Shown here piece by piece: positions 9,976 through 23,201 of a stretch of 64,000 nt of DNA. This DNA is from a phage. Position 1 is the first letter of the stretch. Every line of letters begins with the position of its first letter. The stretch lies in sequence record PZ445517.1; one strand, given 5' to 3'. A program made the position numbers and the translations under genes. The notes below the pieces were generated by a model. The model saw nothing but the letters and a program-made list of their open reading frames with translations, was not told the origin of the DNA and ran no database searches.

Positions 9976-10446
9976 TTAATCATGTTTCCACACCCCATCG
10001 GTATTTGACCAAAGTCGCTGATTATCTGATCCTCGCCACAGCTTTTTAGTCGGAAGATTTTTCTCATACTTCCCATCAATAATAACATCAACATATTTAA
10101 GCATTTCTAGTTGTTTAATATCTTCAAACTTATATCCTGTCCACAACCAAATGCTTTTATTGGGATAAAGATTTTTAATAGTTTGAACCACAGAGTGAAT
10201 CACGTCTCTGTTATCAGGATAAAGAGGGTCACCTCCGGTTATAGTCAATCCTTCTATATAATCATTATTCAAACATTCAATTAATTGTTCTAGTGTTTCA
10301 CCAGTGAATGGAACACCATTTCTAGCATTCCATGTTGATTTATTATAACACCCTTCGCATTTATGCAAACAACCCGTAACGAAAAGAACTGTCCTGCATC
10401 CAGGACCATTAACAAAGCAGCACGGGTATATTCTGTCATAATTCAT
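9976..10446 (-). CDS. nrdG: NrdG anaerobic ribonucleotide reductase activating protein (radical SAM)
   Basis: 156 aa; CxxxCxxC-type cysteine cluster (GCLHKCEGCYN); ATG verified. Confidence 0.95.
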   Translation of the reverse strand: MNYDRIYPCCFVNGPGCRTVLFVTGCLHKCEGCYNKSTWNARNGVPFTGETLEQLIECLNNDYIEGLTITGGDPLYPDNRDVIHSVVQTIKNLYPNKSIWLWTGYKFEDIKQLEMLKYVDVIIDGKYEKNLPTKKLWRGSDNQRLWSNTDGVWKHD

Positions 10447-11275
10447 TTATATATTTCCAATTATAGCCTTCAACACTTTTACGTTCGCCATTTAAACATT
10501 TTAAAATATTTCCTTTGCTAGAAATATTAAAATATTTTGCTGCGTCTGGTATATAATTAAATGTTTTTAAAAGAACACCATCTTTATATGCGCCAAATAA
10601 ATTAAGAGTATATTTTTCTCGAAGACGCTGATGTTTCCTTTTCATAACCTCAGGATTTGCATACGCCAACTTCAATGAATTTCTGTGTTTTTCTTTTACT
10701 TCAGGTTTTTGCATTGCTAACTTAGTTAGCCTGGAAATTTTATTTCTAACTTCGTCAGTTTTCATTGCATTTGACAAATTTAATAAAGTTTTATTTCTAA
10801 CTTCAGGTTTTTGCATTGCTAACTTAGTTAGTTCTCTATGTCTTTTTCTAAAATCGTCATCCTTCCATATATTTTTCGATAATTTTGACATAGAGCGGTG
10901 AAATAATTCCTTTTCACTGGAATACAATTTAAAAATTTCATCCAATTCATCCGCATTAAATCTATCGGTATTCGAGTTTATCATTCTATGAAAGGCATAA
11001 CACATTTTACTATTGCTTGTTTTAGCTAAATAGTAATGAGCTAACGCATGGTCATAATATGACAAATTAACAATATTCCATTTATCTGTTTTATATTCAG
11101 GAAATATAGATTTGGGAAGCACGTGATGTGCTTCCGTTTTTCCTTTTATTTTAGGATTATTATAATTTTTTGTTATCAAATCAACATATGACAATAGTAA
11201 ATCATTATTTTCTTCAAATATTAAAGCTAATTTATCATTCACAAAATCGCAAGGATAAAATCTATCATAATTCAT
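10436..11275 (-). CDS. HNH homing endonuclease with C-terminal tandem DNA-binding repeats
   Basis: 279 aa; EAHHVLPKS...YDHALAH HNH region; 27-bp direct repeat in coding DNA gives LTKLAMQKPEV twice; first 14 codons near-identical to nrdG; ATG verified. Confidence 0.85.
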   Translation of the reverse strand: MNYDRFYPCDFVNDKLALIFEENNDLLLSYVDLITKNYNNPKIKGKTEAHHVLPKSIFPEYKTDKWNIVNLSYYDHALAHYYLAKTSNSKMCYAFHRMINSNTDRFNADELDEIFKLYSSEKELFHRSMSKLSKNIWKDDDFRKRHRELTKLAMQKPEVRNKTLLNLSNAMKTDEVRNKISRLTKLAMQKPEVKEKHRNSLKLAYANPEVMKRKHQRLREKYTLNLFGAYKDGVLLKTFNYIPDAAKYFNISSKGNILKCLNGERKSVEGYNWKYINEL

Positions 11276-13089
11276 TGGTGTTTAACCCTATGCATGATTT
11301 CTTTATTTTTACCGAGATTAAATCCGCGTTCATTCGGATTTCCCAAATAACCACATGTTCTTCTTATTGTGTTCATCTTTTTAGGATCAGTTTCTCCACA
11401 GATAGAACAAACAAATCCGTTTTCAGTAGGAGTCATTTCATGGGTACTTCCGCATGTAAAACACTTATCTACTGGCATATTAACACCAAAATAATCTAAA
11501 TGCTGTGCAGCATAATCCCACACGGCCTCAAGACCTTTTAAGTTATTTTTCATATCTGGAAGTTCAACATAAGAAATGTGACCGCCGGTCGCTATGAAAT
11601 GATAAGGCGCTTCACGAGAAATCTTTTCAAACGGAGTAATATTTTCTTCTACTGAAACATGGAAACTGTTAGTGTACCAGCCTTTATCGGTAACATCCTT
11701 TACACTTCCATATTTTTCTGTATCGAGTTTACAGAAGCGATAACAAAGGTTTTCAGCAGGAGTAGAATACAAGCTAAAAGCAAATCCAGTTCTTTCAGTC
11801 CACTGTTTAAGACGAGCATTCATTTTAGTTAAAATTTCTCGTCCAATATCACGACCTACAAGAATATTCAATTCGTGAATACCAATGTATCCTAGAGACA
11901 CTGAACTTCTGCCATTTTTAAATAACTCAATTATATCGTCATCAGGTTTAAGACGAACCCCGAATGCACCTTCTTGGTAAAGAATAGGAGCAACAGTCGC
12001 TTTAACTCCTTTTAAGGAACTAATTCTACACATCAAAGCTTCAAAACACAAATCCATTCGTTCATTGAACAATTCAACAAATTTCTGTTCATTGAATTGT
12101 GTTCCAATATAAGAATCTAACGCGATACGAGGAAGATTCAGTGTTACAACACCGAGATTATTACGTCCATCAAGAATTTCATTACCAGTCGAATCTTTCC
12201 ATACACTCAAGAAACTACGGCAACCCATTGGAGAAACAGGAATAGATGAACCGGTGATAGCTTTATTATTCTTAACTGAAATAATATCAGGATACATTCT
12301 TTTGCTTGCGCATTCTAGAGCGAGCTGCTTAATATCATAGTTCGGATCGTCTTTATAAAGATTAACACCTTCTTCAACGAACATAACAAGCTTAGGGAAA
12401 ATAGGAGTTATCCCATCACGGCCAAGACCTTTAATACGATTTTTCAGAATTGCTTTCTGAATCATTCGTTCAGTCCAGTCAGTTCCCGTACCAAACGTAA
12501 TTGTTACAAAAGGCGTTTGTCCGTTTGAACTAAAGAGAGTATTTACTTCATATTCATAAGCTTGGAATGCATCGTATACGTCTTTTTCTGTTTTAGATTG
12601 GGCGTAATTCAACGCATCAGCGATTTGCCATTTTTCTGCGTCCTCAATATGTTTTGCATAGGTGCGTTTAACATAAGGAGAAAGTACTTTATCTACATTC
12701 GCAAAAGTCGTTCCGCCATATTGATGAGAAGCAACCTGTGCAGTAATTTGTGCCATAATTGCAGTAGCAACGCCGATTGATTTAGGAGTTTCAATCTGTG
12801 CATTACCGAGCTTAAATCCGTTCTCAAGCATTCCTTTTAAATCTACTAAACAGCAATTAGTAAATGGAAGAGCAGGGGAATAATCAATATCATGGAAATG
12901 GATAATTCCGCTTTCATGCGCTTTCATAATAAAAGACGGGACCATATTTTTGGCAATGTGTTTAGACACAATACCAGCCATAAGGTCCCGTTGAGTTGGA
13001 AAAACACGAGAATCTTTATTAGCATTCTCGTTTAAAAGGTCTTTATTAGTTTTATGAATCAATCCTTCAATTTCTTTTTCAATTGTCAT
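11272..13089 (-). CDS. nrdD: NrdD anaerobic ribonucleoside-triphosphate reductase (intron-less)
   Basis: 605 aa continuous ORF; C-terminal glycyl radical and zinc-ribbon region (CFTCGSTHEMTPTENGFVCSICG, RRTCGYLG); ATG verified. Confidence 0.97.
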   Translation of the reverse strand: MTIEKEIEGLIHKTNKDLLNENANKDSRVFPTQRDLMAGIVSKHIAKNMVPSFIMKAHESGIIHFHDIDYSPALPFTNCCLVDLKGMLENGFKLGNAQIETPKSIGVATAIMAQITAQVASHQYGGTTFANVDKVLSPYVKRTYAKHIEDAEKWQIADALNYAQSKTEKDVYDAFQAYEYEVNTLFSSNGQTPFVTITFGTGTDWTERMIQKAILKNRIKGLGRDGITPIFPKLVMFVEEGVNLYKDDPNYDIKQLALECASKRMYPDIISVKNNKAITGSSIPVSPMGCRSFLSVWKDSTGNEILDGRNNLGVVTLNLPRIALDSYIGTQFNEQKFVELFNERMDLCFEALMCRISSLKGVKATVAPILYQEGAFGVRLKPDDDIIELFKNGRSSVSLGYIGIHELNILVGRDIGREILTKMNARLKQWTERTGFAFSLYSTPAENLCYRFCKLDTEKYGSVKDVTDKGWYTNSFHVSVEENITPFEKISREAPYHFIATGGHISYVELPDMKNNLKGLEAVWDYAAQHLDYFGVNMPVDKCFTCGSTHEMTPTENGFVCSICGETDPKKMNTIRRTCGYLGNPNERGFNLGKNKEIMHRVKHQ

Positions 13090-14703: not shown

Positions 14704-14897
14704 TCACCGTATTTCCACTTAGAAATAGACTTTTCACCATTAGAATAATAAACTTCAAGTTTAGCACGATTATTTTTAATTTGAATAACCTTGGCTGTCA
14801 TCAAAGTTCCATACCCATAGTAAACTGCAACTTCATCACCTACATATACCGCGCTTCCGCGGTAATCGTGAATATAGTCAGTTCCTTCGAGCATCAT
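14682..14897 (-). CDS. hypothetical protein (71 aa)
   Basis: track ORF; stop overlaps next start. Confidence 0.45.
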   Translation of the reverse strand: MMLEGTDYIHDYRGSAVYVGDEVAVYYGYGTLMTAKVIQIKNNRAKLEVYYSNGEKSISKWKYGDCMVKLG

Positions 14898-15157
14898 TTA
14901 AAATATTCTCGCAGTTGGTCAAATCCACCAATATGACTTCCATCAGGAGCAAATACCTGAGGCATTGTCAAGCCGATTTGAGTATCACGACCTAGTTTCG
15001 TTAGAAGCTCAGCGATTTTCTCATCATCAAAAACACCTTTTTCCGGCATAATGTTGATAAATTCAAACGGCTGTTTCTTCACGGTCAAAAGACGTTTTGC
15101 ATTATCGCAATACACACATTTGTGAATGTTGCTATCATAACCATATACTTTAAACAT
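14894..15157 (-). CDS. nrdC: NrdC thioredoxin
   Basis: 87 aa; CVYC redox motif; matches my recall of T4 thioredoxin. Confidence 0.95.
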   Translation of the reverse strand: MFKVYGYDSNIHKCVYCDNAKRLLTVKKQPFEFINIMPEKGVFDDEKIAELLTKLGRDTQIGLTMPQVFAPDGSHIGGFDQLREYFK

Positions 15158-15158
15158 A

Positions 15159-15416
15159 TTATTCCTTAATTCCTAGTACTTGTTTAAAAGTCTCGTCATA
15201 ATCAAGACTTTGGCCCGTTTGTTCTTTATGTTTGTATATAATATCACTTACTTCTGATAGCATATTTTTATATGAACGAGTTAAAGCAGATTTAAGCACG
15301 CTGTATCTATCAGGAAATTTACCATGTTCATTATAATAAGCTATTGCTAATTCACGGACTGCCTTTTCAGCAGTCTCCATATATTCTTTACGCTTGGTCA
15401 TTTTCTTCTCTGTCAA
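15159..15416 (-). CDS. hypothetical protein (85 aa)
   Basis: track ORF. Confidence 0.5.
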
Positions 15417-15684
15417 ATCGGTGTTTACAATGACGACATTTATAACGAAGATTACTAGTCTGCCAATGAACTAATTGTACCTGTTCAGTACCGCATTCAG
15501 GACAATTAGGAACGCTTTTAGAAGCCCTTTCGCGACGTTCAACCATAGCCATAATGGCATCCCAAGCTGGAGGTTTAAAATCTAAATCGTCAGTAACTAG
15601 CAGTCCTTTATCAAACCCAGCGCATGGAGTCCATTCAGGAAAATCTGAAGCTTCGGCAATATCTTCTAATAAACGCTTTTTCAT
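15388..15684 (-). CDS. zinc-ribbon protein (98 aa)
   Basis: CPECG...CRHCKH paired cysteine motifs. Confidence 0.5.
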
Positions 15685-16607
15685 TTCAGTACCTCAATAG
15701 CATCACGTAAACCATTTGCTTTGGCGGTTAAAGCCTTAATAACTTTAGTATGCTCTTCAATCTGTTTTTCAACTTCAATCAAACGGGCACTGAGATATTC
15801 GCGTTCTTCTTTCATAGTATCATTCCCATGATTGGGCTTTGGCGTAGATTTAAATTTACTAGGGTCCTTTAACTTAATAACAACTTTAGTTTCAAACAGT
15901 GAAAGACCATAATTTGTATTATCATCAAAGGATTCAACTACGTCCATTTTAGATAATAACGTGCGAAGATTATAAGTCAAAGAACGAATCGTTTTATTAT
16001 GTTTATTAGCTTCGCACGGTTTCATATATGGAAGATTTTTATATATTTCATGCGGAGCACAAACAATAATTGACAATTCAAATGGTCCATTCTGTGATGA
16101 TGGAATGAATTTAGCTGTAACCCAATCTTTTACATTTACATTAATAGTACGGTCATCGCCATGACAAAACAGTCTACGAGAATGCTTAAAAAGCATATTC
16201 ACGTTATTATTAAATTCATGTGAAAACTCACTAGCAAATTTTTCTTTACTATTTTTAGAAAACCATTCTTCTAAATAAGTTCTTTTCACGTCATTAATAA
16301 TATTAAATGTAACAACATTAGCATTTGATACATTAGTCTCAATGTAGCTTGGATACATAAATTTTTTAACATTATTAACAGCTATCACAGAAGATAGTAA
16401 TCGGGAACGTTTGAACCACTCTAGCAAAGAACCAAGAGAATGTGAATATGCATTTTGTGTATCTTTACAAATATGGTTTTCCCATCCAATATAGTCTAAA
16501 AAATCACGAAGAATATTATTGATTACTGCTCTGTGTCCAATCTGATAACTACGGTGTTTAGTAATAAGACTGTCAAAATAATCAATATAATGTTTACGAG
16601 TTTTCAT
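15681..16607 (-). CDS. hypothetical protein, paralog family member A (C-terminal coiled coil)
   Basis: 308 aa; ATG verified; N-terminus MKTRKHYIDYF; Pro-linker then heptad-like C-terminus. Confidence 0.6.
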   Translation of the reverse strand: MKTRKHYIDYFDSLITKHRSYQIGHRAVINNILRDFLDYIGWENHICKDTQNAYSHSLGSLLEWFKRSRLLSSVIAVNNVKKFMYPSYIETNVSNANVVTFNIINDVKRTYLEEWFSKNSKEKFASEFSHEFNNNVNMLFKHSRRLFCHGDDRTINVNVKDWVTAKFIPSSQNGPFELSIIVCAPHEIYKNLPYMKPCEANKHNKTIRSLTYNLRTLLSKMDVVESFDDNTNYGLSLFETKVVIKLKDPSKFKSTPKPNHGNDTMKEEREYLSARLIEVEKQIEEHTKVIKALTAKANGLRDAIEVLK

Positions 16608-16659
16608 GTTCTTCTCACTTGGTTAATGATTTATGCTCCGAGCCATCCTTGGCTTTAAA

Positions 16660-17661
16660 TTACTTAATTAACTGTAAAGCTTGTTCAAGACGATCCAGGC
16701 GATTAACAGATTCTTCCCAAATCTTTTTAGCCTGCTCATATTCTTTCTGCGCTTTATTAGAAATTTCTAGAACTTCTTTATAAGCTTTTTCTAATGCAAT
16801 AACTTCTGGACGAATTTCTGCCGGTTCAGGCGAATCATCAAGATTATCCATTAGTTCCTCAAGGGTAGTTTCTTCTTTAGGAGTATTCACAATTTCATCA
16901 CATTTTTGTTGGTAAATTTCTTTATCAGTCGGTGAGTACGCACACTTTACTTCACGAAGACTAACTACAATTTTATATCCTTCCCAACCGCATATATTCT
17001 TAAAAGGATATGTATGAATATTTTCTACTGTTTCCATACAAAGTAATGCAGTCTCTAACTGACGAGTTATAGTGCTAGCAATTGAGAAAAATTTATTAAT
17101 ATTCTTTTGGTTAGCGTTTGGTGTAAAAAATCCATAATTCACAAAAATAGCTACTTTATTTTCATCAAGCTCATATTCTTTTACGATAATCATATCAGAA
17201 GCCAAAGGATGAATTTGACGATAATCGCCATAACATAATTTAGAAGCTGATTTTAGAATTTGTCCTTTGAAAAGTCTGAAATTACTAATCCAACGACGAG
17301 TAAAAATATTCTCAGGGTCTTCTTTATTATTAAGATGATAAGAATTAACATCACCGAACCAATTATATCCTACTACATCTTTGGTTCGTTTAATTTCTTT
17401 CCCAAAATTACCAAGAATATCCCGATTAACCAAATATGAAAGAAGACGAGACTCTTTAAAAGTTTTCTTGATAACATCTTTATCTACACGGCTAGAAATT
17501 TTACGAATTTCATGAATAAATTTAGTAGAAGAAACAATACTTGCATCAACACTATTGAGCCATTGATTGATAATAGAAAGAACGATATTTTGACCAAACA
17601 TCGGTATAGCTTTATCATCAATAACGCTATTGAATGATTTGATATATTCGTTACGAGTCAT
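16660..17661 (-). CDS. hypothetical protein, paralog family member B (C-terminal coiled coil)
   Basis: trimmed to ATG at 17659-17661 (MTRNEYIKSF) with GAGGAG SD; upstream track codons are translation of the promoter. Confidence 0.6.
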   Translation of the reverse strand: MTRNEYIKSFNSVIDDKAIPMFGQNIVLSIINQWLNSVDASIVSSTKFIHEIRKISSRVDKDVIKKTFKESRLLSYLVNRDILGNFGKEIKRTKDVVGYNWFGDVNSYHLNNKEDPENIFTRRWISNFRLFKGQILKSASKLCYGDYRQIHPLASDMIIVKEYELDENKVAIFVNYGFFTPNANQKNINKFFSIASTITRQLETALLCMETVENIHTYPFKNICGWEGYKIVVSLREVKCAYSPTDKEIYQQKCDEIVNTPKEETTLEELMDNLDDSPEPAEIRPEVIALEKAYKEVLEISNKAQKEYEQAKKIWEESVNRLDRLEQALQLIK

Positions 17662-17687
17662 ATTAATCTCCTCATTAGAAAGTAAGA

Positions 17688-17722
17688 ACATTATACCACA
17701 TCCTTGTGGCGAAGTAAACTAG
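17688..17722 (-). promoter_or_regulatory. T4-type early promoter
   Basis: minus strand TTTACT - 17 nt - gTATAAT. Confidence 0.55.
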
Positions 17723-18744
17723 TTTAGTGCATTTAGTGCATTGTTCAGTTTAGAACGTTGCTTTGTCAGATTTTGAACCCTTGACTGAGCTTGTTCTAAC
17801 ACCTTTTCAGCTTCTAGCACTTCATTGGTCGCTTTAACGAGTTCATCATCTACTGCCTTAAGAGACTTCTCAATCGCGTCAGCGTGCCATTTTTCTACAG
17901 GTTTAAGACTCGGATTTTCAACAGGAAGAAAATTCACTTTATTGAATTTCCATGCATCATTATTACCTGAACTATACATCCAAAATTTAGAATCGTTTGA
18001 TGAGTAATTGGATAAATTTAAATTTAAATTATCTTGCACTTCTTGCTTTTTCTCTTGCGGGACTTCGTCCTTTCTCAAAAAATCGTATTTAAATGAAACG
18101 ATCATATCAAGTTCATATGTTGTCGTATCTAACTTAAATCGTTCAAAACGAGGTAAAATCTTAGATTGAACAGCAGCAACAACATCCATATACTTAAATG
18201 CTTCTGTCAACTGTGATTTAAGGCATTCACAAATTGAAAGAGAATTTTTTGTATTAGGTTTAAAGCTAATTCGTGCAGTTCTATTATTTTCTTTTAACGG
18301 TCTTACTTCCATCTGAAGAGTATAACCATCAAATTTCAGATTCTTTAAGTTAATATCAGAACCTTTTAATCGACTAGCCGTAGACAAAATTTGCTTTAAT
18401 TGTTTACGGAATAGAGCAATAAATCTCCATTCAAGACGATAATGATTTGGATTAAAAAATCCTGTTGATAAATCAACCTTACTCTGACCAACGCCTTGAA
18501 CAAATAGAGGATTTTTATAATCAATAGTTTTACAGAAATCGGTGAGCTGCTCACGAGCAGTCATTTGTGTAATATATCCCGCTTTACTAAAATGACGTAA
18601 CCATTCACTGCTATTCATATACTTAAAGTGAATATCACGATTAACTTTATCAGGGTCTAAATTATTTTGGCACAAAAATGTCATAACATTACGTGTATAG
18701 CTAGCATTACGAACCATATCTTCAATTTGAGAACGAGTTTTCAT
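17719..18744 (-). CDS. hypothetical protein, paralog family member C (C-terminal coiled coil)
   Basis: 341 aa; ATG verified; N-terminus MKTRSQIEDMV similar to member A. Confidence 0.6.
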   Translation of the reverse strand: MKTRSQIEDMVRNASYTRNVMTFLCQNNLDPDKVNRDIHFKYMNSSEWLRHFSKAGYITQMTAREQLTDFCKTIDYKNPLFVQGVGQSKVDLSTGFFNPNHYRLEWRFIALFRKQLKQILSTASRLKGSDINLKNLKFDGYTLQMEVRPLKENNRTARISFKPNTKNSLSICECLKSQLTEAFKYMDVVAAVQSKILPRFERFKLDTTTYELDMIVSFKYDFLRKDEVPQEKKQEVQDNLNLNLSNYSSNDSKFWMYSSGNNDAWKFNKVNFLPVENPSLKPVEKWHADAIEKSLKAVDDELVKATNEVLEAEKVLEQAQSRVQNLTKQRSKLNNALNALN

Positions 18745-18752
18745 GGTGTTCC

Positions 18753-19640
18753 TTAAGATTTAAGTAAATCAACAATTTTAATTAATTTTTCACGCTCAGA
18801 TTTAGCTTTACTACTCAGTCCAGATAGTCTGAAAATTTCATCATCATATTGCTGAATAGAAATATTCAGCTCTTCAATCTGCTTATTAAAATAATCAATT
18901 TGTTCAGAATGTTTTTCGTTACTACGAACTGGTACAGGTTTTGTAGGCAATTTAGTTGAACTGGATTCATCCGGGCGATAAATTAAAATACAACTTGAAC
19001 CAATAGGGCATTTTGCACCAGATGAATATTCTAATGTTCCGGCTTCTTTTAAAACTTCAAAAGCTAAACAGAGATGATGACCCATATTGACATAATCTGT
19101 AGAGCGAGCTCTGATGTAATAATCATCTCCGCGAATACTAAATTTAAAGCATTTAAGGTCTTCTGTATTATTGGTCTTAAAAATCATTTGTTTATCTAGA
19201 CCTTTAGCTAATCGAGCGCCTAATGCTAATAATCGTCGTTGATTTTCCCACAAATCCGCAATCATTTGATCAAATGATAATTTCGGCATTAGTCGACCAT
19301 AAAGGTCGTATCCTTTATTATAATTGCGAAGGATTTCACTCGCATTAATACGAGACAATGCTCCAATTTTATTAAGGGCTTTCATGATGCGATTAGATAA
19401 ACCCATTCCAGACCCGTTTGTTCGTTGTAAATGTTTATCTAATCCAAACCCAATATCAACTTTAAATTTATCTAAAATTTCAGCATGAACATCTCTGTCA
19501 ATAACATTCAAATCCAAAGTTGGGTTAAATCTATGAAAAAATTTATCTGGCTCTCCACGACGAAGTACAGTCCATTCATTCAATTTTTTATTAACTAAAG
19601 ATTTAATTACTGCATTGACATTATTAATTACGACTGACAT
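18753..19640 (-). CDS. hypothetical protein, paralog family member D (C-terminal coiled coil)
   Basis: track start is TTG; trimmed to ATG at 19638-19640 with GAGGA SD. Confidence 0.55.
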   Translation of the reverse strand: MSVVINNVNAVIKSLVNKKLNEWTVLRRGEPDKFFHRFNPTLDLNVIDRDVHAEILDKFKVDIGFGLDKHLQRTNGSGMGLSNRIMKALNKIGALSRINASEILRNYNKGYDLYGRLMPKLSFDQMIADLWENQRRLLALGARLAKGLDKQMIFKTNNTEDLKCFKFSIRGDDYYIRARSTDYVNMGHHLCLAFEVLKEAGTLEYSSGAKCPIGSSCILIYRPDESSSTKLPTKPVPVRSNEKHSEQIDYFNKQIEELNISIQQYDDEIFRLSGLSSKAKSEREKLIKIVDLLKS

Positions 19641-19694
19641 ATTTTCCTCACTCAATTTCAATTTTACTAAATACGCAGAATATGATGGAAAAGA

Positions 19695-21104: not shown

Positions 21105-22073
21105 TTATTTCAGAAGAGTAACCTCAGCAATTTCTTCCCAACCATTTTTGTCGGTCATAATAAAGTCAGCAAGATAAAGAGCAGTACGCAGTGAAACATT
21201 GCGTAAACGATTAACATTGACTTTCATCCATGATAATGCTTTATAAGTTTCTTCATCAGAAAGACCGCGCTTTTGCATCATGTCAGTTGAAAGAATAACA
21301 TCTTCAACCCTGACCATAATTTCTTCATTAGTGTGAACACCCAAATCCAAATAAACCGAGCGGGACACTAATGCTTGTAAGTGTGGGGCAAGTTTAGTAC
21401 CACGGTCTAATTCGCGGTCAATGTCAACGTTTGTGATAAAAACAATCGTTCCTTTAAATTCAAACTCACGCTCAATGCCTTTTTCTTCTAAGTAAGAAGA
21501 TGCAGTGCTCCAGCAGACTTTACGGGTCTCTCCAGTGTCCAGAGCAGCTTTCAGAAGATTAAGAATGTCCATATCAGAGAAAACATCCACATCATCAATC
21601 AAAAGGACAGAATTCTCTTCACGATTATTCCAAAGCTGCTCATAAAGACCAATACCAGAGATTTTACCATTAATGCTTTTATATTCAATGTATCCATTAT
21701 CATTTGCTTTATTTAAAGCTTTATCTAAAGAATACGTTTTACCAATACCTGCTGCGCCAGAGATAATTAATGAACGAATATTTCCATTAATAATACCATT
21801 CGTCATCATTCCCATAACATTAAATCTTTTATTAATGCGGGTTTTCATATCTTCATATGATTCTTTAACTTCTTCAACTTTTACACCATCATATGAAATA
21901 TCTGATTTGTAAACCCAAACACCACGACGTTTACCGTCAATTTCAACAAAAACTTTACCATCTCCTTGTGCATCTACCGGAGCATTATCTGGGAACCATT
22001 CGCCTAAGAGCTCAAAAGTTCCAGAGATTTCTTTACCGAAGTAGATACCCTTATTGATAGTTACAGTTTTCAT
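21105..22073 (-). CDS. P-loop NTPase
   Basis: Walker A SGAAGIGKTYS and Walker B-like LLIDDVD; trimmed to ATG with GGAG SD. Confidence 0.6.
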   Translation of the reverse strand: MKTVTINKGIYFGKEISGTFELLGEWFPDNAPVDAQGDGKVFVEIDGKRRGVWVYKSDISYDGVKVEEVKESYEDMKTRINKRFNVMGMMTNGIINGNIRSLIISGAAGIGKTYSLDKALNKANDNGYIEYKSINGKISGIGLYEQLWNNREENSVLLIDDVDVFSDMDILNLLKAALDTGETRKVCWSTASSYLEEKGIEREFEFKGTIVFITNVDIDRELDRGTKLAPHLQALVSRSVYLDLGVHTNEEIMVRVEDVILSTDMMQKRGLSDEETYKALSWMKVNVNRLRNVSLRTALYLADFIMTDKNGWEEIAEVTLLK

Positions 22074-22104
22074 TTTATTCTCCAAATCTGTATCAGTTGA
22101 TAGT

Positions 22105-22140
22105 TGTATAGTACCATAAAGCTTTATGCTTGTAAACAGT
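22105..22140 (-). promoter_or_regulatory. T4-type early promoter
   Basis: minus strand GTTTACA - 17 nt - TACTAT. Confidence 0.55.
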
Positions 22141-22165
22141 TTTGTGAAAAAATTTTGAAATAAAA

Positions 22166-22187
22166 AAGGGAGCCCGAAGGCTCCCTA
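22166..22187 (-). terminator. intrinsic terminator (GGGAGCC-UUCG-GGCUCCC + U-run)
   Basis: plus gggagcccgaaggctccc directly after the stop of ORF 22188-23201; U-rich tail on minus strand. Confidence 0.55.
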
Positions 22188-23201
22188 TCATTTATAATAA
22201 CTTCGGTGGTTTTCAAGATAAACCCTCTCAAGGAAGTCATCCCAGAAACCCATGTCTACTTTTTGCTGCATACCGTTTTTAGAAGCTTCAATGGATGCTG
22301 CTTCTACTTGATCGACAACATCTTCCAAAAACTCTTGAACCGTTTTAAATGGATGTTTACCCAACTTCACGTCGAGAATAAATGGAGCATCTTGGAGTGG
22401 ATAAACCAAGTCACCAGTTTTGTAAATTTCCAATAGTTGGAGCCCGCCACGGCAAGCATGACTTAGAGCTTTCCAATCAATGCCTTCATTCGCTTCAGCT
22501 TTACGAGCGCGTTCACCATATTCAGCATCAAGTTTATTCAAAGACTGCTTAAGCTCAATAAGAGAAAGCGTTGTCTGATATTTACGACCCAACACAGTAT
22601 AGAACGTTTGCGGGCCTGTTTTCTCATGATTATGGAATACCCATTCGCAGAATTCGTTTTCTGGAAGACGGTGTTTAATATCTGCAATTTTAGTACGACG
22701 TTGTCCTTGTGTTCCATCTTCTCGGTAATCAACCCACTGATCGGGGATTTGATTAACTACTTTCAATACATCACGCAATGCGGCCAAACGAGAACCCTTA
22801 ACACCATATTTAGAAGCTTGCTTGCGGACATATCCTAAATAGGATTTCATGTTAGTCGTATAAAAACGAGAACGATTGTCTTGGATAAATTTCCACACAT
22901 CAGGTAAATCAGATTTAACCACTAGTTCAGGTGGAGTGTGAAGCATATCCAATGCTACAGTTTCACCATCTGCTGCTAATTTAAAGAAATACTTAAGACT
23001 GTATAGTTCATGGTCAATATCATCTTTAGTGTTTTTAGATGATGTGTTGTTAGTGTTTTTACTCATATGCTCTTTAACATTTCCGATAAGAATATCGCGA
23101 GCAGGAGGAACAAAGATTTCTTTAAAATCCACATCAGATTCTGGAGTAGAAGTTCCATAAAGATGACTACCAAAATAGCTTTTCATTACTGTTTTCATCA
23201 T
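22188..23201 (-). CDS. nucleotidyltransferase-fold protein (Pol-beta-like NTase motif)
   Basis: GSHLYGTSTPESDVDF matches the GS...D.D NTase signature; 337 aa; ATG verified. Confidence 0.6.
   Translation of the reverse strand: MMKTVMKSYFGSHLYGTSTPESDVDFKEIFVPPARDILIGNVKEHMSKNTNNTSSKNTKDDIDHELYSLKYFFKLAADGETVALDMLHTPPELVVKSDLPDVWKFIQDNRSRFYTTNMKSYLGYVRKQASKYGVKGSRLAALRDVLKVVNQIPDQWVDYREDGTQGQRRTKIADIKHRLPENEFCEWVFHNHEKTGPQTFYTVLGRKYQTTLSLIELKQSLNKLDAEYGERARKAEANEGIDWKALSHACRGGLQLLEIYKTGDLVYPLQDAPFILDVKLGKHPFKTVQEFLEDVVDQVEAASIEASKNGMQQKVDMGFWDDFLERVYLENHRSYYK

Follow-up and report, generated by a model that had tools for sequence, protein, structure and literature searches.

The nrdC.3–nrdC.6 locus

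The DNA analysed here, a window of 64,000 nucleotides from the phage sequence record PZ445517.1, is the genome of a T4-type phage and carries four consecutive genes, nrdC.3, nrdC.4, nrdC.5 and nrdC.6, whose relationship and possible role are the subject of this work. Megablast analysis found 100% identity between a 3,981-base stretch over the four genes and Escherichia phage T4_ev240, and hundreds of Tequatrovirus genomes matched the stretch at 90-96% identity. Gene names were assigned by synteny with the annotated T4 genome AF158101 (nrdD, gene 49, pin, nrdC and nrdC.1 to nrdC.11), and the list of open reading frames (ORFs) places every gene of the region on the minus strand.

The gene nrdC.3 (15681-16607, minus strand) encodes a protein of 308 amino acid (aa) residues with 96% aa identity to the T4 protein, which matches phrog_1435 over residues 2-308 with an expectation value (E) of 3.3e-100. 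The next gene, nrdC.4 (16660-17661, minus strand), encodes 333 aa and matches the same family (E 4.2e-169); nrdC.5 (17719-18744, minus strand; 341 aa) is syntenic with T4 nrdC.5, its product sharing 94% aa identity with T4 NrdC.5 and matching DUF7235 (E 1.4e-120); and nrdC.6 (18753-19640, minus strand; 295 aa), encoding the most divergent of the four proteins, matches phrog_2257 (E 4.8e-153). These four frames, their starts and their similar sizes had been picked out in an earlier note made from the sequence, and are borne out by the ORF list and by the starts of homologues. The MKTR start ascribed there to two of the genes belongs to nrdC.3 and nrdC.5, nrdC.4 beginning with MTR, and the T and R of this start are invariant across the nrdC.3, nrdC.4 and nrdC.5 families. 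An alternative, longer nrdC.4 ORF extends to 17691. We took the ATG at 17661 as the start because homologues begin with MTRNEY and because a T4-early-type promoter-like site, TTTACT-17 nt-TATAAT, followed by a GAGGAG ribosome-binding (Shine-Dalgarno) site (17690..17718, minus strand; a consensus match only, from a consensus scan and reading of the sequence), is situated just upstream, between the nrdC.5 stop and this ATG. For nrdC.6 an upstream TTG at 19661 is a possible start, yet homologues begin at the ATG (MS...).

Pfam and PHROGs divide these proteins among three separate families of unknown function, namely PF26897/phrog_1435 for nrdC.3 and nrdC.4, PF23882/phrog_2351 for nrdC.5 and PF26899/phrog_2257 for nrdC.6. 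NrdC.5 matches the full DUF7235 profile (PF23882; phrog_2351) at 402.8 bits over profile positions 1-307 of 307, against a gathering threshold of 30 bits. As the match of this profile to nrdC.3 is confined to the tail and sub-threshold (11.1 bits), and nrdC.4 and nrdC.6 gave no match in the Pfam profile scan, nrdC.5 is the sole DUF7235 member by the Pfam criterion. Among the matches listed, the nrdC.3/4-type homologues found by profile were all already labelled PF26897, and 109 of 109 nrdC.6 homologues carried the label PF26899.

In many GenBank phage records, numbering in the hundreds, the homologues of NrdC.3-NrdC.6 are annotated as 'thioredoxin'. This assignment was rejected, given that none of the four proteins has a thioredoxin-family match in Pfam or NCBIfam and that the models of NrdC.5 and NrdC.6 are helical with a small beta-alpha-beta unit. 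The true thioredoxin, NrdC, is the 87-aa ORF at 14894-15157, and the label seems to be a naming artefact that spread from the gene name nrdC.x.

Paralogy of the four proteins over their whole length

Pairwise BLASTP joined only nrdC.3 and nrdC.4, and these at marginal significance (23% identity over 242 aa, E 0.004), no other pair among the four proteins being significant. The proteins are about 15-25% identical to one another, and the only columns invariant across nrdC.3, nrdC.4 and nrdC.5 are T, R and F. Profile comparison with hhalign gave a different picture. The nrdC.3 family matches the nrdC.4 family with 98.1% probability (E 1e-13), and the nrdC.3/4 profile matches the nrdC.5 profile with 96.6% probability (E 7e-10) over 233 columns, nearly the whole length.

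The link to nrdC.6 is provided by a gene encoding 309-337 aa and situated just upstream of nrdC.2 in those T4-like phages that have one copy. Members of this single-copy family were found in the Klebsiella phages phi1_146055 and Mineola, the Enterobacter phage IME523, the Edwardsiella phage PEi20 and the Pectobacterium phage PM2. Its profile is designated K, and K with the Mineola protein added is designated K2. K2 matches nrdC.3, nrdC.4, nrdC.5 and nrdC.6 with probabilities of 82.4, 96.8, 98.4 and 93.7%, respectively (E 1e-5 to 4e-15; 205-245 columns), the match to nrdC.4 having an E value of 2.4e-10 over 231 columns, and K itself matches nrdC.6 with 96.2% probability (E 2.7e-9) over 199 columns. 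A hidden Markov model (HMM) search of the window with the K model returned nrdC.4, nrdC.5 and nrdC.6 and nothing else; reciprocally, the nrdC.6 model retrieves the IME523, PM2 and PEi20 proteins. Among the 42 ORFs of at least 150 aa in the window, K2 ranks the four genes first, the next best scoring 0.8%. In control comparisons reversed families reached at most 1.5%, and both NrdC.8 and an unrelated neighbouring family stayed below 1%. In both body and tail, all four proteins are homologous by profile to the single-copy K gene.

The near-empty BLASTP result beyond nrdC.3-nrdC.4, together with the three families kept by Pfam and PHROGs, could also be read as a modular origin, in which unrelated effector domains each acquired a common linker and coiled coil and any resemblance beyond the tail reflects composition or chance. 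The earlier note had leaned this way, regarding the N-terminal domains as diversified effectors on a shared module. Comparison of the bodies alone, with linker and tail removed, contradicts this. The probabilities remain 98% for nrdC.3-nrdC.4, 95% for K-nrdC.4, 91% for K-nrdC.6 and 83% for nrdC.4-nrdC.5, forming a chain from nrdC.3 through nrdC.4 and K to nrdC.6 with nrdC.5 joined to nrdC.4, at values where the reversed-sequence controls and the helix-tailed NrdC.8 stay below 2%. In addition, the order of secondary-structure elements is identical in the two models described below. A modular origin is thus the least credible of the readings considered here. Because the K2 profile matches all four proteins, the bodies match without the tail and the Foldseek matches agree, we conclude that the four are paralogous over their whole length rather than different heads on a shared tail. 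The duplicated family proposed in the earlier note therefore exists, joined by profile methods across all four genes. On these sequence grounds we propose to unite the separate database families and members in one NrdC.3-6/K superfamily of T4-like phages.

Two further genes were considered as members and rejected. NrdC.8, whose C-terminus likewise forms a charged helix, gave an hhalign probability below 1% as a fifth member. The same value was obtained for a conserved 256-262 aa gene lying a short way upstream of the single-copy homologue (L007 4505-5278, L023 4247-5017, L024 3458-4243, L025 3916-4686 and L026 7497-8285), which adjoins that homologue in Mineola and is separated from it by one to four small ORFs in other one-copy phages.

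The C-terminal tail and its linker

Each of the four proteins has its last proline at a distance of 48-59 residues from the C-terminal end, and the tail beyond it is proline-free. Tail periodicity was assessed from the conserved hydrophobic positions in family-alignment columns, the power in the 3.4-3.65 residue band being compared with that of 2000 column shuffles; this alignment-based measure replaced a cruder heptad score (97-99.6th percentile). Band power beats the shuffles in five of five families, the fraction of shuffles reaching the observed power being 0-0.016, and the strongest hydrophobic period is 3.45-3.55 residues in the nrdC.3, nrdC.4, nrdC.6 and single-copy K families. The heptad-like helix of NrdC.3 spans residues 259-308 (15684..15833, minus strand; period 3.50, shuffle fraction 0.0015), and that of NrdC.4 spans residues 286-333 (16663..16806, minus strand; period 3.45, shuffle fraction 0.002), ending in RLEQALQLIK. 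The helix of NrdC.5 covers residues 283-341 (17722..17898, minus strand) and ends in KLNNALNALN; its global maximum lies at a period of 2.35, the power in the 3.4-3.65 band being nonetheless above shuffles (shuffle fraction 0.016). The helical region of NrdC.6, residues 238-295 (18756..18929, minus strand), ends in KLIKIVDLLKS and has a period of 3.45 and a shuffle fraction of 0.0045. The tail of the Klebsiella single-copy homologue ends in KLLRAIQALK, and a motif common to the tails, [QE]R.KL..A[IL]..L[KN], closes the protein.

AlphaFold2 modelling of NrdC.5 predicts a disordered linker, with a predicted local distance difference test (pLDDT) value below 50, followed by a single 59-residue helix (282-340; tail pLDDT 76-89). 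In NrdC.6 a disordered linker likewise precedes the tail, which is predicted as two helices, 245-271 and 277-294, with a break at a conserved SGL. Of the proline-containing linker and heptad-like helix of about 40 residues described in the earlier note, the linker and the heptad period stand; the length is nearer 50-59 residues, with a predicted break in the NrdC.6 helix. Within each family conservation is highest in the tail, with mean pairwise identities of 66%, 47%, 74% and 79% in the nrdC.3, nrdC.4, nrdC.5 and nrdC.6 families, and the beta-alpha-beta unit is the least conserved, identities in the alpha/beta core being 33-65%.

We infer from this pattern that the tail, which the earlier note regarded as an oligomerisation or anchoring module, may act as a coiled-coil oligomeriser. 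A doubtful but not unreasonable alternative is that it serves as a conserved docking element or as the active part, for instance by inserting into the TPR sensor of bacterial defence proteins of the Dsr1/Avs7 type, which are introduced below, or, in a variant, by attaching to some machine of the host or the phage; in either case the body would tune specificity. Conservation is highest in the tail, its specific motif is exactly C-terminal in every family including the single-copy one, and in the AlphaFold2 models it is set apart from the body by the disordered linker, all of which would suit docking. Helices or extended peptides are common ligands of TPR repeats. It is through such repeats that Dsr1 senses (PMC12803255). 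Against docking, a hydrophobic period of 3.5 residues maintained over about 50 residues is what a coiled coil requires. A docking tail would in any case be compatible with the model of defence inhibitors proposed below.

The T4 reference nrdC.6 differs from the window by a 1-nt deletion at about 18860 (gctgAatatt; L001 (AF158101) 10008-10118). Since this deletion shifts the frame, the annotated T4 reference NrdC.6 has 275 aa and lacks the conserved C-terminal helix. The frameshift is either a real mutation of the laboratory strain or a sequencing error.

Predicted structures

AlphaFold2 models were obtained for NrdC.5 (29-sequence merged alignment) and NrdC.6 (30-sequence alignment; pLDDT 77, predicted template modelling score (pTM) 0.64). 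Both show a common order of elements, with helices, a helix pair, two strands, a helix, two strands, the linker and the tail. Foldseek searches in BFVD with the NrdC.6 model matched the full-length IME523 (E 1e-5) and PM2 (E 1.5e-5) proteins, and the syntenic 326-aa gp080 of Klebsiella phage Mineola was matched by both the NrdC.6 (E 1.5e-3) and the NrdC.5 (E 6.3e-7) models. The two models, that of NrdC.5 with a pLDDT of 67, were compared via these shared matches, not by direct superposition, and the template modelling scores (TM-scores) are only 0.36-0.48; the prediction of the N-terminal domains thus agrees in element order at low TM-scores. Among solved structures no relative of the family was found. 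The Foldseek matches suggest further relatives in T4-like phages of Acinetobacter, Erwinia, Serratia, Aeromonas and Yersinia. A tblastn search with the PM2 homologue did not reach the Acinetobacter, Erwinia, Serratia and Aeromonas proteins, so that it is predicted structure only that suggests a spread beyond the sequence-confirmed genera.

Copy number and divergence among T4-like phages

An exhaustive HMMER search with the nrdC.3/4 profile against 1.84 billion representative proteins yielded 11 hits; those that were examined all derive from T4-like phages, and no nrdC.5 or nrdC.6 member was among the hits at E <= 0.001. Word-indexed homologue searches found close T4-like relatives only, among the matches listed, the search with the nrdC.3/4-type profile covering at most 8000 candidates and missing the Klebsiella homologue, and a pattern-based locus search of IMG/VR yielded 15 loci, all from the same genera. 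Neither these sequence searches nor Foldseek found a relative outside T4-like phages.

Copy number varies across related phages, being four, three or one depending on the genus. Tequatrovirus has four copies (C6-C5-C4-C3), Mosigvirus three (C6-C5-C3) and Dhakavirus and Gaprivervirus also three (C6-C5-C4), and a single copy (K) is present in Kanagawavirus, Mosugukvirus, Jiaodavirus and the phi1_146055 group. The identity of the four proteins between genera is 22-55%, compared with about 80% for the flanking genes (67-92% for nrdC, nrdC.8, nrdC.10, nrdC.11 and gene 49). Within Tequatrovirus the ratio of nonsynonymous to synonymous substitution rates (dN/dS) is 0.16-0.31 for nrdC.3, 0.18-0.29 for nrdC.4, 0.14-0.36 for nrdC.5 and 0.02-0.14 for nrdC.6, against 0.00-0.16 for nrdC, nrdC.8, nrdC.9, nrdC.10, nrdC.11 and gene 49. 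These values reflect purifying selection, which indicates that all four genes are functional, and nrdC.3, nrdC.4 and nrdC.5 evolve several times faster than their neighbours.

Rearranged forms of the genes occur naturally. A protein of 299 aa (P0056), encoded on a 167-kb contig, is an in-frame fusion of NrdC.5 (145-271) with NrdC.3 (138-308) in which nrdC.4 is deleted, and its junction, at about nrdC.5 residue 271 and about nrdC.3 residue 138, lies at a GTGAAT microhomology. In a Tequatrovirus locus (L011 6950-7982; IMGVR_UViG_2974742932_000001) nrdC.4 is split into ORFs of 193 and 158 aa, probably as a frameshifted pseudogene. Comparison of the window protein with P0253, P0245 and P0235 revealed mosaic nrdC.3 alleles, the common P0253-type protein being 87-97% identical to that of the window over residues 1-70 and then only about 40%. 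In the megablast comparison, the matches of many genomes to this region begin only at query base 438.

Neighbouring genes

The adjacent nrdC.2 (15388-15684) encodes a protein only 66% identical to that of T4, against 96-100% for its neighbours, and the window is therefore mosaic relative to reference T4 at this gene. In the nrdD region (10436-13089), nrdD is an uninterrupted 605-aa ORF encoding a protein with 99% identity to its counterparts in one Gaprivervirus and one Mosigvirus; the T4 reference nrdD carries the I-TevII intron. A 279-aa ORF between nrdG and nrdD, in the place of mobC in T4, shows weak NUMOD-type matches (best E 2.4e-4, 21.1 bits; gathering 27). In the region 21105-23201, NrdC.10 gave AAA/STAND-type NTPase matches, all below Pfam gathering scores (best E 1.2e-4), and NrdC.11 matches RlaP, a nucleotidyltransferase of an RNA-repair pathway (E 3.6e-11). 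A strong hairpin, terminator-like, is located between the NrdC.10 and NrdC.11 genes at 22167-22186.

Possible role in counter-defence

One of the four T4 ORFs, nrdC.5, already has a published role. Srikant, Guegler and Laub (eLife 2022, PMC9391042) described a T4 deletion clone unable to plate on E. coli ECOR17, which regained plating when dsr1 was removed from the host; cloned dsr1 shielded MG1655 from the T4 deletion mutant, and plasmid-borne expression of T4 nrdC.5 allowed the mutant to infect Dsr1-carrying cells again. The gene is handled there as a lone uncharacterised early gene, without a mechanism or mention of its relationship to nrdC.3, nrdC.4 and nrdC.6 (PMC9391042). Dsr1 combines, in one fusion protein, a SIR2 effector with a TPR sensor that it has in common with Avs7, and is triggered by the phage major capsid protein (PMC12803255, a 2026 preprint).

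Combined with the homology, distribution and divergence data, this suggests the following model. One ancestral gene just upstream of nrdC.2 may have been tandemly duplicated to give nrdC.3, nrdC.4, nrdC.5 and nrdC.6, which would have kept a common layout: the helical N-terminal region is followed by a small alpha/beta unit (two strands, a helix and two strands), apparently the fastest-evolving part, and then by a disordered proline-containing linker and a conserved amphipathic heptad helix. The products would be early-expressed, non-enzymatic proteins that act as stoichiometric inhibitors by binding bacterial defence proteins, the variable body recognising a particular defence protein or allele and the conserved heptad tail supplying self-association or common docking. 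The target of NrdC.5 would be the sirtuin NADase Dsr1, those of the other three being further Dsr1 variants or other systems. Direct binding is put forward by analogy, and the anti-defence roles of NrdC.3, NrdC.4 and NrdC.6 are likewise putative; these three are good candidates because their paralog NrdC.5 disarms Dsr1. We assign the whole picture of paralogous stoichiometric defence inhibitors a probability of roughly 0.55. The locus behaves as the arms-race locus that the earlier note suspected, with varying copy number, fast divergence, raised dN/dS, mosaics, a fusion and a pseudogene, and since T4 NrdC.5 neutralises Dsr1, this view of the locus is supported.

Several observations weigh against the model. 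The functional data are confined to NrdC.5, which could act indirectly. The nrdC.6 profile (19 non-redundant sequences) matches those of nrdC.3, nrdC.4 and nrdC.5 directly at only 1-7%, its link to them being indirect, and these direct comparisons always align one block, ALSRINASEILRNY...NQRRLLALGARL with SRLLSYLVNRDILGNF...QILKSASK and GYITQMTAREQLTDF...QILSTASRL. The NrdC.5 model is of moderate confidence (pLDDT 67, pTM 0.53). The greater conservation of nrdC.6 in Tequatrovirus (dN/dS 0.02-0.14) would fit a housekeeping-like role equally well, and with gene-wide dN/dS below 1 throughout, the fast evolution is seen without demonstrated positive selection.

It is possible, with distinctly less weight than the model of defence inhibitors, that the paralogs share ancestry and not function, NrdC.5 alone being anti-defence and the other three having other roles in early infection, such as modulating host or phage proteins outside immunity. 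Among the papers listed by a literature search, none deals with the function of nrdC.3, nrdC.4 or nrdC.6, NrdC.6 evolves slowly within Tequatrovirus, and mutual identities of just about 15-25% leave room for such a division. The paralogs have nevertheless kept the same architecture and the conserved tail motif, all four diverge between genera much faster than the flanking genes, and the gain, loss, fusion and pseudogenisation seen in natural phages are typical of accessory host-range genes.

The proteins might alternatively be enzymes, for example nucleotide- or NAD-related ones, that counter defence catalytically, as is suggested by the thioredoxin annotation in many GenBank records and by the enzymatic nature of other NAD-directed counter-defences (NARP pathways). 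This is very improbable and, like the modular origin, contradicted by the evidence, as Pfam showed no enzyme or effector domain in the four proteins, PADLOC and NCBIfam gave nothing above noise, and no catalytic-type residues are conserved across nrdC.3, nrdC.4 and nrdC.5.

A more speculative and unlikely extension of the inhibitor model is that the shared helices assemble the four paralogs into mixed coiled-coil oligomers, a multi-headed complex in which each body would block another TPR-sensor defence of the Dsr1/Avs7 type. In a related version the bodies would be decoys of the capsid-protein surface that TPR sensors recognise. If such mixed oligomers did form, gene duplication would add specificities to an existing scaffold.

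The apparently new elements are the unification of the superfamily (set against Pfam and PHROGs at the level of families), the single-copy gene of ancestral type, the series of one, three and four copies and the domain map. Even in T4, the reference phage, the majority of accessory early genes are without a known function. Placement in a family with NrdC.5 turns the hypothetical proteins of nrdC.3, nrdC.4 and nrdC.6 into testable counter-defence candidates, and the domain map, with its variable alpha/beta body and conserved tail, can guide experiments. The natural copy series offers a model for the growth of an anti-defence repertoire by tandem duplication.

Comparison with known systems

The closest known system is T4 NrdC.5 itself. 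The window nrdC.5 is its ortholog, with 94% aa identity and the same position, and nrdC.3, nrdC.4 and nrdC.6 are paralogs of the same architecture. The anti-Dsr1 activity belongs to the T4 allele, to which the window allele is related by sequence at that identity.

A functional analogy is offered by DSAD1 of phage SPbeta, a phage protein that is reported to bind the SIR2 defence protein DSR2 and block its activation. No DSAD1-like sequence or structural similarity was found in the four proteins.

The internal proteins IPI, IPII and IPIII of T4 form an accessory set with one short conserved module and diversified bodies, and IPI counters GmrSD. IPIII acts against a system of ECOR17 (PMC9391042). 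The likeness to the NrdC paralogs is one of layout, a shared module with diversified bodies, for which no sequence relation is claimed. The shared module of the internal proteins is N-terminal and capsid-targeting, and they are injected along with the DNA; the NrdC paralogs, in contrast, share a C-terminal helix and are homologous throughout.

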